A DNA stretch of 38,067 bases from a virus (taxonomy: Duplodnaviria > Heunggongvirae > Uroviricota > Caudoviricetes): the IMG/VR virus record IMGVR_UViG_2541047915_000012. One strand, given 5' to 3'. Position 1 is the stretch's first letter, and each line of letters opens with the position of its first letter. Below the pieces are notes generated by a model. The model saw nothing but the letters and a program-made list of their open reading frames with translations, was not told where the DNA came from and made no database searches. Of this stretch, positions 256-9,121 are shown in pieces. The position numbers were made by a program, and so were the translations under genes.

Positions 256-3201
256 TTAGTGCTTCCCTTCTATTAAGTCTAACCTAGCTTTTATTCTTTC
301 TATTTCTCTGCGCTGCCATGCTGCCTCGATATAGAATAAGAGATCAGGTCTGACCCCCCATCTAGATCCTGCTGGCGTTATTTCAACGCGCTCAATGATG
401 TCTTCCATTACCATCACTGGATTATCATCCTCATCAACAATGATGCTCCCGTCATTATCAGTCAGCGGCATTTCCCTTTGGCCAGTAATGACGTCATCAT
501 ATACTGCGGGATAATCGTCATAGCAAAGAAAGGCATAGCGGCATGTTGTGCTTTCTTCTTCCATGAGTCCGTGAGAAATAAGAACATCACGAAGTTGCTG
601 CGCGATTACACCATGATGTATCCTCGCCCCTTCTTCCCCCTTTATAGCGACAGCGTTCAGCCATTTATAAGCGATATACCTGACGTCACCCCAGGCATCC
701 AGCAATGTTTCGTCAGGAGAGACCGGCTCTGTCTTTAATGTTCCGTCACTGGTAACCACAGGATTGGAGCCAAGATAAACTATCGAGAACCTGTTTCCCG
801 GACCACCAAGAGCATTTACATTATCAAGATAAGGTTTAACATCTCCGTTCTCAAAAAGATGTTCGAGTGCGTTATATACCGCGCGACGTGGAGTACTGCT
901 TCTGGAACCATGCAACGTTATCATTGCACCATCTGCTGAAGACGTTGTTTCACCGCCGCTAACGATTAATCTCTGAGCGGTAACATCATCAGACGGTACT
1001 TTCTTCGCAATAATGGCGTAATTACCCTCAAGTTTGACTTCCGCGCGAACTTGTCCTGATGTACCTGCATGGACAGTCAGTGACTGGACGGCAACATCAT
1101 CTGTGAAATCAACGGGTACAGGAACCGTCCTCACGCCTGACGTCGACATAAAAGTAGGAAGCGTTCTGTTAGGAGTGGCTCCGTAGACAAAATCCCTTGA
1201 AACAAATTCTTCCTGTTTAATTTTCACCCTGAAACAATACAAATCAGCCGGGTGACCATCGTGAACATAAGGATATTTTCTGTTGTTATCCCCTATGCTC
1301 CATGGGTTTAGAAAGTCTTCCCCACCGAAAATGTAGTACAGCCAGTTGTCTTTGATACAAACTGAACCAACACCAACCGCAGAGTTAACTATTCCGCCCT
1401 GATAAATCTGATCAGTAACATTAACCCACTCTACATTATCCAGACTCCACTCATTGACGTTAACTCTGGTCATAAATGTTCTTGGATAGTTTCCTGCATA
1501 ACGGTTATCAGGTTCTCCTCCTTCCCACTCACCAAATGCGCGCTCACTGCCAAAAATAATCAGCTCATCGCCAACTTTGGCAAAAGGAAGGTTTGAGTGA
1601 TGAACATTATTTGGGAAGCGAAGAGAATTCCATGATGTACCTAAATCAGAGCTTCTGTGCAATGAACTACCGGGTTGAGTACTTAATGTCCCCCTGGTCG
1701 TCAGATACAGAATGCCATCATAATATTTTACACATGGCTCAGATGCATTCGCCTCATATTCTGCAGGTATGCGTCTGCGAACAAAGCTACCAGGAGAACC
1801 GAAAGCATCAGAGAAATAGAGTATCCCAAGCTCGCGTGGACCAATATCACCATTATGGTAGCCAACAGCAAAACTGTTATCGCTAATCGTCGCAAAACTG
1901 TGAATCTCAGTAACAGGAGTGCTTCCGTCAACAAAAGAAGGAATAGTTCCAAGACTGGTTTTTCTCCATGGTGACGAGTGAAATGATGTACCAAAACTCC
2001 AGTATCTACCCTCGTTATTCTGATCCACATCCTGGGTATTTTGCGTCGTAACTGTAAAAGTATTTTTATCAATAACAGTAGTCACCGTCATATTCCCGGT
2101 AACACCTGTAACACCAGAGTTTGAGAAGTTGACAAAATCACCAGCAAATAATCCGTGATCAGTAATGCGAATATAAGCGACTTGCTGATTTGCTGCTTTC
2201 GTTATACCACCATAAACGCGAAGGCTGCGACTCATTGGGCGATCCCACAACTCTGCAACCTGCAGTTTATTTCCGCTCACGGTCCGCGTCTCAATTACAG
2301 CAAAAAGGCGATTTCTGACAACCCCCATACTCATGCAGTGATAGTTAACTGTGGGATAGTTTTCATGTAAATCTGTAAGCCATTCCGGCGTTGTCCAGGT
2401 CTTCCCGTCATCTCCTGAGCGAACCCATGCAACATGGAGGTTATTTACACCATGGCGGTCTCCAGCCATAAAAGGCGCATAGATGACATTGTCATATACA
2501 AACGTTTTATCCTGCGTCCAGGCGTTGTACCACGGTGTATCTGTAATTTTAAATAACTCTCCCTGGATAAAATCTTCAGAAACATAAAAAAGAGGCTGAC
2601 CCGGTATTCTCTCAAATAAAAAACGAGCATTTTTAAATCGACTGACATCTGGAAGAGTTGATACTTTAAAAGTAAGCCCTCGCCCATCTATCTTTTCACC
2701 ACCTGTTGCAACAGAAAGTAATTCTGATAGAGCTGATGTATCATCATGAACACCATCACCAATAGCCCCCCAACCTCTTACATCATAACTGTCTCTCCAT
2801 CTTGCTATCTGAAGTTTTGGGTATTTATTCGCTCCATCTGGGTCTTCTAATTGCTGCCGTAGTTGATCAGGATCATACTTCAGCACATTCTGGAAATAGA
2901 ACTGCTGTACGCCATACGCATCGTACACAGCCATAGAATGGCCTTGCACAGTTACGAACTTGGCAATCCGTCCGTTATATACAGGGTAACCAGCAGCGTT
3001 AATGATGATTGGTTGCGAAACAGGAACGTGAGAGCCGTCTTCGTTCTCTACATAAACCTGAATCCGGTTTTCAGGATTTACCGGGTCAGTGTCAATTTTA
3101 CCGATATAAATTTTGCCATTGGCTACGGCTTTAAAAGAACGCGCCATAGTGAAGAGTTGCGAAGGCATCGATACAATCACATTGGCTGTAATGTCTGTCA
3201 T
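256..3201 (-). CDS. Tailspike protein, probable endo-N-acetylneuraminidase (endosialidase) with P22-type head-binding N-terminus and C-terminal intramolecular chaperone domain
   Basis: 981-aa ORF, GGAG RBS before ATG at 3201; N-terminal ~110 aa resemble P22 gp9 head-binding domain (MTDITANV...[19 protein letters not shown]...VTVQGHSMA); two sialidase Asp-box motifs SGDDGKTW and SSDLGTSW; C-terminal ~150 aa resemble autocleaving chaperone domains of endosialidases and tail fibres. Confidence 0.75.
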
Positions 3202-4204: not shown

Positions 4205-4436
4205 GTTGGTTTTTCTCCACGGATTTACCGACAACCGAAGCCCTGACTGTTCCAGCAGTTGGGGCTTCACTGTTTTGATTTCTTTGCCGCATCAAGCATC
4301 ACTTCTGAAAACGTGCGCTTGCCACTGAATACTCTTTCTCTTCTCAATTTTTCGTTCGTGCCAAATGATTCGCCATGAACAAAATTTGGTCTTAAAATGG
4401 TAATCGCAATCTCTTTGACTACTGCATCCAAGCGAA

Positions 4437-4589: not shown

Positions 4590-4703
4590 GTTACCCTCCA
4601 CGCAAACAACTCTTTTCGAATACAAAAGATAGCAAAGTGAGTATATCTAGTCAAAATTTTTTTGCATACACTTTGCTATCAAATTGAATACCAAAGGTGT
4701 TAT
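4590..4703. promoter_or_regulatory. Divergent Pant/Pmnt control region with operator-like inverted repeats
   Basis: Between divergent arc and mnt; minus-strand -35 TTGACT (complement of 4651-4656); perfect 12-bp inverted repeat GATAGCAAAGTG (4628-4639) / CACTTTGCTATC (4669-4680) flanking it. Confidence 0.5.
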
Positions 4704-4952
4704 ATGGCAAAGGGTGTGTCAATTTCTCCAACTACGGTAAGAATCCCTGAATCTTTACGCGAGGCTCTTGCTGTCAGAGCATCAAAAAATGGTCGCTCTG
4801 TTAACTCCGAGATCGTCATGATTTTGCAAGCCGCGATTGATGAAGATAGGTCGCCAAAGTCAGTTGAGTCATTTGCTCAGCAAGAAGCTGATAAATTCAA
4901 AGAGGCGCTACTTGAGACGCTAAAGACCATGTATGCTAAGGATGAAAAATAA
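4704..4952 (+). CDS. mnt: Mnt-like repressor (Arc/MetJ family)
   Basis: 82 aa from ATG at 4704 (AGGTG RBS); ...ASKNGRSVNSEIVMILQAAI... resembles P22 Mnt (...EANGRSMNSELLQIVQDAL). Confidence 0.7.
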   Translation: MAKGVSISPTTVRIPESLREALAVRASKNGRSVNSEIVMILQAAIDEDRSPKSVESFAQQEADKFKEALLETLKTMYAKDEK

Positions 4953-5488
4953 TGCTGCACACAATTCATTTCTTATGCCCTGTTAACACTGCCACTGTTG
5001 GGCAACTTCAGAACCACTGTCTCACCGCATTATCTCAAGGCGCAACTGAATTAAATATCCATATATCAAGTCAGGGAGGGGAAACTGCTGCTGGCTTTAC
5101 TGCGTATAACTTTCTTAAGTCACTCCCTGTTACCGTTAGAACTCACAACATAAGCAATGTTGAATCCATAGCTAATATCGTTTTCCTGGCTGGCTCAGAA
5201 CGTTTCGCAAACCCATTATCAAGATTCCTGTTACATCCTCTATTATGGTGCTTTGCCTCCCCAGCCGCCGACCATGCCAGATTGAGAGAGTACGGGAAAT
5301 GCCTCGATAACGATCTTGATCGCTTCGTTGAGACGTTCAATATCGACATCGGAACCCATATTAGGTGGGCATCCCTGATAGCAGACTCGACCATTTTGGA
5401 TGCTAACAAGGCTCTTGAGCATGGCATAATTAATTCCATAAAAACTGCAAGGCTGGCATCCAATCAGGCAAACTGGTGGGTTGTTTGA
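4952..5488 (+). CDS. ClpP-like serine peptidase (Clp/crotonase fold), function unknown
   Basis: 178 aa; start overlaps mnt stop (TAATG). Alignable by eye to E. coli ClpP: IHISSQGG vs YINSPGG, ...VESIANIVFLAG vs ...AASMGAFLLTAG, SRFLLHP vs SRVMIHQP, ALEHGIINSI vs AVEYGLVDSI; candidate Ser/His/Asp triad present. Confidence 0.55.
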   Translation: MLHTIHFLCPVNTATVGQLQNHCLTALSQGATELNIHISSQGGETAAGFTAYNFLKSLPVTVRTHNISNVESIANIVFLAGSERFANPLSRFLLHPLLWCFASPAADHARLREYGKCLDNDLDRFVETFNIDIGTHIRWASLIADSTILDANKALEHGIINSIKTARLASNQANWWVV

Positions 5489-5510
5489 TGGGTAAATCAT
5501 GATTACTCCT

Positions 5511-5536
5511 TATAAAAAACCCACCTGACGGTGGGT
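5511..5536 (-). terminator. Rho-independent terminator immediately after the YafO-like gene (bidirectional position between convergent genes)
   Basis: Minus strand: TAA-ACCCACC-GTCA-GGTGGGT-TTTTTAT; perfect 7-bp stem, 4-nt loop, T-run. Confidence 0.75.
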
Positions 5537-5986
5537 TTAGTCAAACATAGTGTTTCTAAAGTCTCTCGCATACCCTGCTAACACTCTCATTCTATTATGA
5601 TTGTTAGCAGACATGTGAGCTACAGGATGAAAAAGAGCAATCAATGAATACCTGTTCTCATCAAAAAGATTTTGTGCATAAACGAGAGCGGTATTGGATG
5701 TTTTATGCCACTGCAACTTTTGCGGTGTGCTGATATCTGTGCCATTTTTTATTGGCTCAAATTTATTTTCACCAATTGCTAAATGAAGGTGCATAAGGCC
5801 TGCATCTTCAATATCAGGAGGTCGATGATAAGAGGTGTCTCTGCCAAAATAGCTGGGCAACGTTCCCGTAGACTTGTAGATGATAAAATCATCTACAAGT
5901 GTTTGTTTTAAATCAGGAAACTCAACAAAAACCGGGGAGAAAAAATAGTCAAAACTATCCTGATTATATTCCACGGTTACTTGCAT
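5537..5986 (-). CDS. YafO-family toxin-like protein (putative ribosome-dependent mRNA interferase)
   Basis: 149 aa, ATG at 5986 with GAGGT RBS overlapping upstream stop. Blocks shared with recalled E. coli YafO: DFIIYKSTGTLPSYFGRD vs DFISYKRDGVLPDIFGRD; MHLHLA vs AHIHLA; LIALFHPVAH...NNHNRM vs LIAILKPEPH...DNNQMH; C-terminal DFR vs AFR. Confidence 0.55.
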   Translation of the reverse strand: MQVTVEYNQDSFDYFFSPVFVEFPDLKQTLVDDFIIYKSTGTLPSYFGRDTSYHRPPDIEDAGLMHLHLAIGENKFEPIKNGTDISTPQKLQWHKTSNTALVYAQNLFDENRYSLIALFHPVAHMSANNHNRMRVLAGYARDFRNTMFD

Positions 5987-5994
5987 GTTTTACC

Positions 5995-6561
5995 TCAGTG
6001 GAAGTTACCAGAGTGAAACACACGAGTCCCGTGCTCAGCAAGCGCACGCAAACCAGCCATATCTACGGAACTATCAAAAACAACCGGAACACATGAGCGT
6101 TGTTTAATAAGACTATTCAGGTTGGTTACGGCAGATCTGGCATCAGCAACAACGATATAGATATCTCTTGCGATCTCTTTAAAATCAGCAGAAGCTTCTT
6201 TGAATACCGATTTCATTGCCCCTTCAAGTCCTCTCAATTGATGCTCTATCAATCGAGACTTTTCTGGTTCAATGATAGACAACACATTGTCTACATTCTC
6301 ATCGGTAGCGTTTGCAAGAACACGATAAGCGTATTTCAGCATTCGAGACAATTCTTTAATCGAAGACACCGCCTCATGAAGCTCATCATTAGCCCGTTCA
6401 CTGCTGAATGAGGATTGATGGTAAGCGTGCTGAACGTTATCAGTAACAACCACCTCACAACTGAACGCAGAAGCTTGCTGTAATAGCAAACCTATTGCGA
6501 CTCCAGCTTTGGCAGCGTTCAAGCTAAACATTTCATCAATCCCATTAGTCTCATTGCTCAT
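5995..6561 (-). CDS. Hypothetical protein, upstream operon partner of the YafO-like gene (not recognisably YafN/RelB/Phd-like)
   Basis: 188 aa from ATG at 6561 with perfect AAGGAGG RBS 5 nt upstream; stop is 8 nt before the YafO-like ATG; tool ORF begins at an upstream TTG. Confidence 0.6.
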   Translation of the reverse strand: MSNETNGIDEMFSLNAAKAGVAIGLLLQQASAFSCEVVVTDNVQHAYHQSSFSSERANDELHEAVSSIKELSRMLKYAYRVLANATDENVDNVLSIIEPEKSRLIEHQLRGLEGAMKSVFKEASADFKEIARDIYIVVADARSAVTNLNSLIKQRSCVPVVFDSSVDMAGLRALAEHGTRVFHSGNFH

Positions 6562-6736
6562 ACAAACCTCCTTCTTATCGGAGATTATCAATAGCTATGC
6601 ATCCATTGAATACACGCTATGCGCAATAAGTTTACGTCACGTGATATCATTATGCAACCACCGTTCTATCACCGACTAACTTTACTCCCACTCCTATACA
6701 TCATCTGGTATCCTGCGCAAAACTAAGGAGGTTGGT

Positions 6737-7087
6737 GTGAATGCTCAGTCTGTCATCATGGTTTTCCTTGGGCTGATTGTCGCAAAACTATATCCAGACT
6801 GGTGGAAAGGGGCATTAGCTACTGTCGCCATCTATTTGCTTTTATCCATCGTTAAGCGATCACTCGCTGAGACCGTAAATCAAGCAAAACGTTTCTCATT
6901 TAAGAGTTTAATAAACTATGTTACTGGGCTTATTTTTTGCCTTTCAATTCTGATCGCTTCGGCTTTTTTGCCCGTATCAATAGCTAATTTTTTTGGCGCA
7001 CCATATGAGGTAGGTTATCTATTCTCTGTTTCCTGTCTTGCCATTGCTCTTCTTTACCTGTGGACGAGATCAAAGAATAAAAATTAG
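6737..7087 (+). CDS. Small integral membrane protein (about 4 predicted TM helices), candidate superinfection-exclusion-type protein
   Basis: 116 aa, GTG start preceded by AAGGAGG; hydrophobic stretches VIMVFLGLIVAKLY, ALATVAIYLLLSIV, LIFCLSILIASAFLPVSIANFF, VGYLFSVSCLAIALLYLW; divergent from the 5995-6561 operon. Confidence 0.55.
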   Translation: MNAQSVIMVFLGLIVAKLYPDWWKGALATVAIYLLLSIVKRSLAETVNQAKRFSFKSLINYVTGLIFCLSILIASAFLPVSIANFFGAPYEVGYLFSVSCLAIALLYLWTRSKNKN

Positions 7088-7104: not shown

Positions 7105-9121
7105 TTATTGAGCTTCTTTTTGTGATGCCTGTGCGACTCTGGTGAGCGATTGTGTGACCGTACTGATCGCTCTGTCATATGCTGTGCTACCTTTTGGCGT
7201 ATTTGCCAGACGTAACAAGGCATTTCGTATAACAGGGCTTTCGTATGCCTTCGCAGCTCCTCCTACGACACCAGCAGCAGGAACAACAAACGCAGCCGTT
7301 TTTAGCATCCCCGCTAATACTGCTGCGTTTATGATGCCACCACCAACTAACAATCCATAAAGCTGCTGACCATTTAAGTTTTGAACGTTCGCTTTTGCCG
7401 CGTGTCTTGTATCGTTGAGGTATTTAATAACGCCGTCCAGTTCCTTTCCATGTACGCCTTTAAAGAAAGTTGCTGATTGCTTCCTGTTCCGGTGTAACGC
7501 ATTAATAAACTTTTCAACACTAATATTTCCAGACGGATCAGTCGCCTTATCTACAGCATTCTGAACTATGGCTGCTCGTGCGTTTTGCCTACCATTGTCA
7601 TCCAGAAGCCTGTAAAGCTGAGAACGTTCTGATGGGTTTTGGCTAAAAACGAGTTTTGTTACATCCTCAGGTGTAGCCTTGCCGCTGGCTATTGCCTTTT
7701 GAACGCGCGTTCTTCCCATCATGTCATTGAATCTAGCCCATGAGCGATCAACCCTAGACATATTGGCAGCTTCTTCTGAGCCTAGTTTTTGGGATACTGC
7801 TTTTTTCATATCCGCTGTATATGCCTTGTAGACAATATCGCTGGCTTTCTGGAGCGTGTCTTTATCAACAGTCTCGTTTGAATTCATGAACCGCTTTCGA
7901 AGGTCAGTTCTGTTTTCTCTCGCCAGACGCAGGTCATTGGGTCCGCTGGTGATATCGTCTTTAAATTGCTGCAAGACTTTTACCGCGGCTCTATCCTGAG
8001 ATTTGCCCGGGCGGCTTAACACGGCAATCTGATTGTCGATAGCTTTTACCGTGTTTGAGAGATCGACAGGGGTATCCCCCATAGCGTCAATTATGCGGTT
8101 ATATCGCTTTCCTGCTGCCTCAATGAATTTTTGTTGCCCTTTAGTCGCAGATTCATAAAGCTGTTTATCAGAAATGCCACCCAGACCATCGCTAAATGTT
8201 CTGACTAAATTTTCTCGTGCTTGTTGTTGATTCAGCCGATTCTTACCGGTTCCAAAAAAAAGGAACTCTTTCGCCTAATGTCTGAGCCTGACTCTGCATA
8301 AAGGTTTTATCTTTCAGCGTGTCACTGGTCATTAACGGCAGGTTTCTTTCCGACGCAAAATCGACAGCAGCCTTTGCTTCCGGTGACATCTCACCGCGAA
8401 CAGCCCTGGAAACCGCACTAACTGTATTTTCCAGCCCCTTGCCAACACCACCAATGCCAGCAGAAATTACCGTTTGTGCAGGATCAATATCTTCTCCGCC
8501 AGCAAGGCTGGTGCCACCCTGTAGTGCTAAATCTGTAGCAGCTGATTTCCCTATGGCACCAAGCACCGTTCCAGCCCTGCCCGCTGGTGTGAACGCTAAC
8601 GCATTAGCAAGAAACGAAGTCAGGTCTTGCGGTGATAAACCTGGCTTGTTCAGGGCATAATCACCGGATGGCAGGGAAACGATAGTGTTACCCTTCTCAT
8701 CCTGCCTTAATTTCGCCCCCATACTCTGAAGAATCTTTTCCTGAGACGCGTCGGAGCCGAAAAGTTGAGACCATCCAGCCTTCAGGGCATCCATGCTTAG
8801 TGAGTTCAACTCAGGGGCAGCCCCAACATTTTGCAGTCTCTCCATTTCTGGTGTCATTCGGCTTTCACCGGTAACGGCATCGCGCATTGCAGCACCTAAA
8901 ACAGCCCCTTGCTCAGCAGAGCGATCTAGTCCTTCCTTCTGCTGAGTGGCAAGCTGTGCATATCCTGATGCAAGTGAGTTGTCTGCTGGCGATTGCTGAA
9001 CACCTTGTTGTGTTGGCGCTGACTGACCAGCAAAATACTCATCAATGGCGGACCCAATATCTTCCGTGCTCGTACCATCAGGAAAGGTAAATGTCTTACC
9101 ATTTGCAGTTACTTTCATCAT
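7105..9121 (-). pseudogene. Ejection protein gp16 homolog with reading frame interrupted at an A8/T8 homopolymer
   Basis: Two same-strand ORFs (8243..9121, 292 aa; 7105..8082, 325 aa) where P22 has one gene 16; the downstream ORF frame stays open upstream through the homopolymer at 8254-8261, so a 1-nt change would fuse them (~670 aa). Confidence 0.5.

Follow-up and report, generated by a model that had tools for sequence, protein, structure and literature searches.

A phage-borne YafO-family toxin gene and its strictly linked partner from a new protein family: a candidate toxin-antitoxin-like cassette in a P22-like Escherichia coli prophage

The genes yafNO of Escherichia coli K-12 constitute a type II toxin-antitoxin (TA) system in the dinB operon, in which YafO is a ribosome-associated mRNA interferase and YafN an antitoxin of the Phd/YefM type. 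To our knowledge, YafO is among the least understood toxins of the RelE/ParE superfamily; we know of no solved structure, and of no studied partner besides YafN. A 2025 review describes PF_YafO as a RelE/ParE toxin of the BECR fold with antitoxin-then-toxin gene order (PMC11980606), and the family has been demonstrated experimentally to be a toxin in E. coli (PMC11980606; PMC3337138). Leplae et al. (2011) reported that none of the YafO genes in their data set was phage-borne, and that these genes were paired with antitoxins of the Phd type or with unclassified ones. The YafO of the Pseudomonas aeruginosa prophage vB_PaeS-D14L (D14L) appears as a toxin without partner in a 2023 survey (PMC10449497), and a YafO toxin, reported alone, is part of the cargo of a Pseudomonas fluorescens tailocin (PMC4684702).

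Here we describe a YafO-family gene and its upstream neighbor on a stretch of 38,067 nucleotides (nt), IMG/VR record IMGVR_UViG_2541047915_000012, referred to as the window. It is a P22-like E. coli prophage, and E. coli ATCC 11775 carries a virtually identical one. Two co-oriented open reading frames (ORFs) on the minus strand, both confirmed, make up the cassette: the toxin gene (5537-5986, ATG at 5986) encodes 149 amino acids (aa), and the gene preceding it (5995-6561, ATG at 6561), named the partner throughout, encodes 188 aa. In RefSeq, the toxin gene bears the label 'type II toxin-antitoxin system YafO family toxin', whereas its upstream neighbor is called a 'hypothetical protein'. The toxin is thus already known and annotated; the partner family, the obligate linkage of both genes and the mobility of the cassette are not described in the literature we found. 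We give a slightly better than even chance to the reading that the pair is a phage-borne TA-like cassette which combines a YafO-family RNase with a new family of cognate partners and probably serves exclusion, abortive infection or prophage retention.

Membership of the toxin in the YafO family is established by a match to Pfam PF13957 (YafO_toxin), which spans profile positions 3-101 of 101 with 78.9 bits (gathering cut-off 25, E=3.4e-22), and by 38% identity to K-12 YafO over 120 aa (BLASTP, E=7e-20). A sequence-only reading of the locus had recognized the likeness to YafO, which is borne out here; a missing YafO-family profile match for 5537-5986, which it had named as a reason to abandon its proposal, did not occur. 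The protein is moreover a full-length member of PHROG 1651 (E=1e-47). Seventeen columns are invariant across 11 diverse YafO members including the one of K-12 (D33, F34, Y37, P44, F47, G48, Y53, H66, H68, F76, L101, Y103, E110, P121, H124, M133, and F143), and the window toxin retains each of these residues. Against NCBIfam NF007377 it reaches 79 bits and stays below the equivalog cut-off of 153; furthermore, it carries an N-terminal extension which is absent from K-12 YafO. Due to this extension and a score of only half the equivalog cut-off, we take the protein, as far as its sequence tells, for a member of a distinct and divergent YafO subfamily rather than for an ortholog of K-12 YafO. The proteins of this subfamily are acidic (median pI 5.7). 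A search of the PDB sequences with the toxin returned no detectably related chain.

The same features, i.e., the score relative to the equivalog cut-off, the extended N-terminus and the acidic character, together with the lack of a match to defence models, would also suit a tamed RNase, which does not arrest growth in this context but tunes phage or host transcripts with the partner as cofactor or regulator, such that neither TA nor defence would be involved. We consider this improbable. The invariant residues are complete, including the His, Glu, and Tyr shared with K-12 YafO, and the strict pairing and translational coupling reported below are hallmarks of controlling a dangerous product.

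The partner belongs to PHROG 8416 over its full length (E=2e-96), a group for which no function is recorded. Searches of Pfam, NCBIfam, PADLOC, and the PDB sequences with the partner alone, with a family profile and with 26 members singly gave no significant match; hence, an assignment to a known antitoxin family, or to any known family, was dropped. In particular, a Pfam scan of 26 partner-family members for Phd/YefM, RelB, and DinJ remained without match, and a BLASTP comparison with YafN revealed no similarity (E=36). These results agree with the sequence-only reading, which had remarked on a partner of twice the size of YafN without RelB/Phd/DinJ-like motif. A match of the upstream protein to a known antitoxin family, the other outcome under which that reading was to be given up, was not found either. 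The family is small: A word-indexed search yielded six clusters, and an exhaustive profile search of 1.84 billion representatives yielded 23 clusters.

An AlphaFold2 model of the partner, based on 25 family sequences (pLDDT 79, predicted local distance difference test), contains six helices and no strand. A hydrophobic helix (residues 16-34, pLDDT about 73) is followed by a linker of low confidence (residues 35-53), a helical bundle (residues 54-156) with long, confident helices at 54-83, 99-122, and 125-156, and a conserved C-terminal helix and tail (residues 168-188, helix 168-184). Structure searches with the partner models returned generic helical bundles only. The partner is therefore best regarded as a new family with a predicted all-helical fold. 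Family-wide conservation is seen for R110 and E113 (motif QLRGLEGA), A141-R142, Q154, S164, L171, L174, and H177, and the C-terminal segment is the best-conserved part of the protein. Type II antitoxins usually bind their toxins through this part.

The fold model and the conservation pattern also decide on a further proposal of the sequence-only reading, a PIN-like fold of the partner, which would make the pair a module of two nucleases. It had been derived from spaced acidic residues; these are present in the window partner and are the sole support for the idea, but they are not conserved in the family, with D41 found in 6/25, D59 in 4/25 and D140 in 2/25 sequences (mostly Lys instead), while position 163 is D or E in 17/25. 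Since the predicted fold is all-helical and the acidic residues vary, we rejected the PIN-like nuclease and leave it next to no credence.

The association of both genes was studied across related loci of enterobacterial, Pseudomonas and metagenomic phages. A partner homolog is located directly upstream of the YafO gene in 77/77 loci. When the partner or close relatives of the toxin served as starting point, all 32 loci with a full-length partner revealed a YafO gene -4 to 12 nt downstream. Contigs with toxin relatives of 55-71% identity invariably carry a gene for a 190-aa protein, 34-39% identical to the window partner, 8 nt upstream. A scan of viral contigs with a partner alignment revealed 19 loci, each with a YafO gene downstream, and even the five of the most distant partner relatives that we followed (18-28% identity) are succeeded by a PF13957 gene. 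Conversely, a scan for distant toxins added 74 viral loci, where a partner homolog lies immediately upstream in 45 out of 45 cases with enough upstream sequence; one apparent exception was a mis-called toxin start. Narrower alignments were used for these locus scans, as broad alignments contained no conserved peptide stretch. The distant partners likewise fall in PHROG 8416.

Partner and toxin have also diverged together. Their distance matrices are correlated with r=0.91, a value reached by none of 2000 permutations, and the partner diverges faster (mean distance 0.61 versus 0.46 for the toxin). Antitoxins usually diverge faster than their toxins. The strict linkage in all 77 loci argues for a functional pair, and the arrangement of two small, co-oriented, tightly spaced genes, kept together in one operon, is that of type II TA systems. 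With the partner as candidate antitoxin, the order of the genes also agrees with the one described for PF_YafO (PMC11980606). Given this linkage, the suggestion of a new TA or two-effector module made from the sequence alone still appears to be the right frame.

The pairing extends to YafO genes that have been described without a partner. In D14L (locus L036, 1507-2459), a partner-family gene of 167 aa, annotated as hypothetical, is located 8 nt upstream of the YafO gene. Similarly, phage HK639 (locus L035, 2962-3980) has a named YafO gene and, with an 8-nt gap, an upstream partner called 'hypothetical'. As cargo genes of phage-derived elements, the 'orphan' YafO genes of D14L and of the tailocin are of the same kind as that of the window.

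Signals within the pair point to coordinated expression. The intergenic gap measures 8 nt, and at the junction (5987-5997, minus strand) the partner stop codon TGA (5997-5995) together with the adjacent GGT forms the Shine-Dalgarno (SD) sequence (GAGG) of the toxin gene, at a spacer of 8 nt. This tight coupling had already been suspected from the sequence. The arrangement CA(C/T)-TGA-GG(T/C)-N5-(ATG/TTG) occurs in 12/12 distinct junctions of the window's clade, and cassettes farther from this clade have other short junctions. TTG or GTG starts are frequent among the toxin genes of related cassettes. Because the ribosome binding site (RBS) of the toxin sits on the partner stop and relatives often start with TTG, toxin translation is coupled to, and probably weaker than, that of the partner; this design thus favors a surplus of the partner. 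For the partner gene itself, AAGGAGG at 6573-6567 stands ahead of the ATG at 6561, and the mechanically called ORF reaches back to a TTG at 6591.

Directly 3' of the toxin stop, an intrinsic terminator was read from the sequence on the minus strand (5512-5536, ACCCACC-GTCA-GGTGGGT followed by a T-run), which also faces the convergent Clp-like gene described below; a pattern scan did not list it. A stretch of 42 bp spanning this element (5497-5538) is 100% identical to a stretch of Salmonella phage vB_SemP_Emek that is annotated as 'terminator'. Within the toxin gene, the window contains a perfect 13-bp inverted repeat with a 3-nt loop (5872-5900), which on the plus strand is followed by a T-rich run and scored terminator-like. 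It is partly kept in the Salmonella relative and absent from other clades. As it is clade-specific and largely a product of the codons for V-D-D-F-I-I-Y, this hairpin was dropped as probably incidental.

Upstream of the partner, we recognized a putative cassette promoter on the minus strand (6629-6657), composed of TTGCAT (6657-6652), a 17-nt spacer and TAAACT (6634-6629). It appears to fit a sigma-70 promoter; a scan with the consensus promoter did not list it. Its spacer contains the palindrome TCACGTGA (6644-6637), which is not conserved in the Salmonella relative L012. The skeleton TTGC(A/T)(T/C/G)-N17/18-TA(G/A)A(A/C)T recurs before related cassettes in unrelated phage contexts, and the cassette therefore seems to bring its own promoter. 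The following leader of about 70 nt (6562-6628, minus strand) can sequester the partner RBS in a hairpin, in which AAUCUCC (6586-6580) pairs with GGAGGUU (6571-6565). Folding of 6550-6628 gave -23.3 kcal/mol with a z-score of -3.2 against shuffled sequences, and an anti-SD/SD pairing is also conserved in related cassettes.

A longer leader is found in the clade with 190-aa partners, including HK639, where about 160 nt of upstream DNA are conserved despite differing flanking genes (L002:3270-3425, L004:3270-3425, L015-L022, and L035 at ~2800-2961 for HK639). The promoter of this clade has a palindrome, TTGCTCAaaaaTGAGCAA, over the -35 element. Its leader comprises a small first hairpin (ACAAC/GTTGT) and a GC-rich second one, whose stem varies between loci with pairing kept and which is mostly followed by a U-run in the manner of a terminator or attenuator; an anti-SD/SD pairing comes next. 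This long conserved leader is absent from the window. An Rfam search with it gave no match at gathering, and it may represent an uncharacterised cis-regulatory leader or small RNA.

The cassette is inserted between the DNA-ejection genes and the immI region (mnt/arc/ant/sar). The phages phiv205-1, EC.P3, and E212, which do not have the pair, share the window sequence only up to about position 5538; thus, the cassette is bounded on one side by the terminator. Phage phiv205-1, which is P22-like, has two other small genes in the same slot, and in P22 itself the corresponding slot presumably holds the membrane exclusion gene sieA. The shared 42-bp terminator stretch represents a common boundary for the exchange of cargo in this slot. 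In addition, the GC content across the cassette (0.38-0.43) is lower than that of the structural genes (0.45-0.52).

Related cassettes occupy a variety of positions: within the tail gene cluster of HK639, between a tail tube gene and an arc/ant region, between a Q antiterminator and a holin, immediately behind a cI-type repressor, and near an integrase, as in a Pseudomonas phage and in other elements. These are classic sites for cargo genes expressed in the lysogen. On sequence grounds, the pair is best described as a mobile cargo cassette, or 'moron', with its own putative promoter and terminator. Among 5,426 complete E. coli genomes, 55 (about 1%), the type strain ATCC 11775 among them, contain the full cassette region at high identity, and the region is 100% identical among the records listed, which include APEC O1, S88, and others. 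An active toxin must therefore be tolerated, as the intact pair persists at high identity in these 55 genomes.

From these observations we infer toxicity, neutralisation by binding and the biological role of the cassette as follows. The downstream gene would encode a BECR-fold endoribonuclease, and the partner would most likely bind and neutralise it as a new antitoxin family in place of YafN. Both genes would be transcribed into one mRNA from their own promoter up to their own terminator, and owing to the coupled and weaker translation of the toxin, the partner would remain the more abundant product. Lysogens would express the pair from its cargo slot. Failure of the supply or integrity of the partner, e.g., upon infection by another phage or upon prophage loss, would free the RNase, and the ensuing arrest of translation would amount to abortive infection, exclusion or addiction.

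The structured leader and RBS of the partner mRNA, along with the hydrophobic N-terminus of the partner and its lack of an antitoxin-like domain, could also be accommodated by reversed roles resembling type V systems, where the helical protein, exported or membrane-active, is the harmful component and the YafO-like RNase restrains it by cleaving its mRNA. RNases acting as antitoxin have a precedent in GhoS, which acts on ghoT. We judge such a reversal very improbable, as gene order and coupling favor a surplus of the partner, which looks like a soluble bundle of 188 aa and not like a small lytic peptide, and the YafO family has proved to be a toxin in E. coli experiments (PMC11980606; PMC3337138).

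Several points weigh against the TA-like cassette as outlined above. Ribbon-helix-helix, helix-turn-helix, AbrB, and Phd domains were sought in the partner and none was detected, its fold being a generic helical bundle. With neither a DNA-binding domain nor a known antitoxin fold found, type II-like autoregulation is not apparent; the candidate promoters of the cassettes do overlap with palindromes, but these differ between clades. In PADLOC-DB 2.0, the toxin has no match and the partner only a weak, coiled-coil-type match to the ZorA tail (E=0.004). PADLOC contains no model for either protein, and it is from location only that a defence role is deduced.

A further point concerns the N-terminus of the partner. 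Its hydrophobic stretch, correctly pointed out by the sequence-only reading, corresponds to AGVAIGLLL at residues 19-27. In most family members, the N-terminus resembles a Sec signal peptide or signal anchor in its three parts, namely a short n-region that is mostly positive, an uncharged core of 9 residues (Kyte-Doolittle mean 1.7-2.8), and a small-x-small site (e.g., AMA|Q, ASA|D, SFSA|G, AEA|A; QQASA|FSCE after residue 32 of the window partner). The segment is followed by the low-confidence linker of about 20 aa in the AlphaFold2 model. A deliberately simple and crude heuristic, which is not a calibrated predictor, passed 46/53 unique partner ORF sequences (87%), compared to 22/325 (6.8%) of the other ORFs of at least 150 aa at the same loci. 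If the partner is exported, classical neutralisation of a cytoplasmic RNase does not apply.

The main alternative, which is possible albeit rather doubtful, is that the partner is Sec-targeted, either to the periplasm or to the inner membrane by an uncleaved signal anchor, and that the pair is not a classical type II TA system. Three versions can be distinguished. The partner could be a 'transmembrane antitoxin' with a single pass: Its short N-tail in the cytoplasm would retain the RNase, and its bundle in the periplasm would sense envelope events, such that the injection of DNA by a superinfecting phage would be linked to RNase release in an RseA-like fashion. Alternatively, it could be an 'export-labile' antitoxin, where lability is brought about by secretion instead of proteolysis. 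Finally, there could be two effectors in different compartments, a periplasmic exclusion protein and a cytoplasmic RNase.

Besides the three-part N-termini, the contrast between partners and other ORFs in the heuristic, and the disordered linker that separates the N-terminal helix from the bundle, the presumed position of sieA in P22 speaks for Sec targeting. Residues 1-18 of the window partner have a net charge of -2, an acidic n-region which is common to its subclade and unfavorable for Sec, and the protein passes the heuristic only from M11, while the strong RBS serves M1. On the other hand, this subclade has the most hydrophobic core in the family, and a strong hydrophobic core can compensate for missing positive charge in signal peptides. 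Further objections are the uncalibrated heuristic as such and the conservation of the N-terminal helix (A.GLL.QQ), whose pairwise identity of 0.47 exceeds that of bundle residues 54-83 (0.33) and is unusual for signal peptides. Moreover, at least one lineage, P0040, has lost the hydrophobic segment and retained the YafO gene. Lipoprotein and Tat signals were considered as well and dropped: No lipobox or twin-arginine motif is consistently present in the N-termini inspected, the conserved Cys often follows a His or Pro, and few members have RR. The literature search revealed no precedent for an exported or membrane antitoxin, nor an arrangement in which an RNase is controlled in this manner by a Sec-targeted protein.

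We regard it as unlikely that the partner is truly Sec-targeted and that a cytoplasmic YafO RNase is controlled by a protein which is membrane-spanning or departs from the cytoplasm. The choice between the toxin-antitoxin and the two-effector reading depends on whether this signal-peptide-like N-terminus is functional. A functional signal would break with the assumption that protein antitoxins are soluble cytoplasmic proteins, and would substantially raise the interest of the system.

The surroundings of the cassette are those of a P22-like phage. The immI region encodes Mnt-like and Arc repressors and an Ant protein with P22_AR domains, together with the sar antisense RNA. The latter was identified on the plus strand (4205-4271) by a full-length match to Rfam RF00262 (83.9 bits, gathering cut-off 43) and overlaps the start of ant. 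In P22, sar is the antisense RNA belonging to immI, and this match confirms a P22-like immunity region. The gene of the Mnt-like repressor, a member of the Arc family (4662-4952, plus strand), overlaps the start of a Clp-protease-like gene (4952-5488, plus strand; 178 aa, Pfam CLP_protease, E=2e-11), which is convergent with the YafO pair. RefSeq names it ClpP subunit, and the annotation of phage phiv205-1 reads 'head maturation protease'. A link between this gene and the YafO pair was considered and discarded, as there are Clp-bearing phages without the pair and the other cassettes examined have no nearby Clp gene. Its presence in other phages without the pair thus marks it as independent cargo.

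On the other side of the cassette, a plus-strand ORF of 116 aa (6737-7087) is divergent from the partner; RefSeq calls a hypothetical protein of 109 aa at this site. By eye the product looks like a multi-pass hydrophobic protein, and it has no Pfam match. Its RBS and that of the partner are near-identical and form an inverted repeat (6558-6573/6725-6740). The ORF sits at what we take to be the sieA position of P22 and could encode an exclusion protein.

Two differences to the ATCC 11775 prophage were observed outside the cassette. A poly-A tract at 8254 is A8 in the window and A7 in ATCC 11775. The extra A splits a 670-aa gene beside the DNA-ejection genes into two minus-strand ORFs (7105-8082 and 8243-9121), and the A8 tract could be a sequencing error, the mark of a pseudogene or a slippage-prone tract. 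Furthermore, ant and the tailspike gene of the ATCC 11775 prophage are separated by an IS21-family element, ISEc12 (istA/istB, about 2.6 kb), which is absent from the window; at the junction (window ~3173-3177), the alignment blocks overlap by 5 bp.

Taken together, our findings indicate that a whole phage-borne branch of the YafO family uses a different, unnamed partner. The pairing would explain the 'orphan' YafO toxins of prophage surveys and provides a rule for annotation, by which a YafO gene has its cognate gene in the PHROG 8416 member immediately ahead of it. In lysogen-expressed cargo slots of P22-like, lambdoid, and Pseudomonas phages, the cassette constitutes a candidate phage-encoded system for exclusion or abortive infection. 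The literature searched contained no report of an obligate pairing of PHROG 1651 and PHROG 8416, no mention of the two RefSeq accessions, and no paper linking YafO with P22-like phages; PHROGs, of which the window proteins are full-length members, gives no function for either group.

Compared to other phage cargo, the cassette takes up positions similar to those of P22 sieA, lambda rexAB, and P1 sim, i.e., beside immI, beside cI, and in late or tail operons, whereas its proteins have neither sequence nor fold similarity to these systems. P1 Sim is an exclusion protein bearing a signal peptide. If the partner is membrane-targeted, conceptual parallels exist to the type V system GhoS/GhoT, where an RNase is paired with a membrane protein, and to anti-factors of the RseA type, where a cytoplasmic effector is held by a single-pass sensor. 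Both are analogies without homology; GhoT is far smaller than the partner, whose cytoplasmic tail would comprise only 8-18 residues. The closest described system remains yafNO, with which the cassette shares the Pfam family and conserved core residues of the toxin, the upstream position of the partner, and the close spacing of both genes. In contrast to yafNO, the partner is unrelated to YafN, twice its size, predicted to be all-helical and equipped with a hydrophobic N-terminus, the toxin scores below the equivalog cut-off and is extended at its N-terminus, and the cassette is borne by a phage with a putative promoter of its own, whereas yafNO resides in a chromosomal SOS operon.

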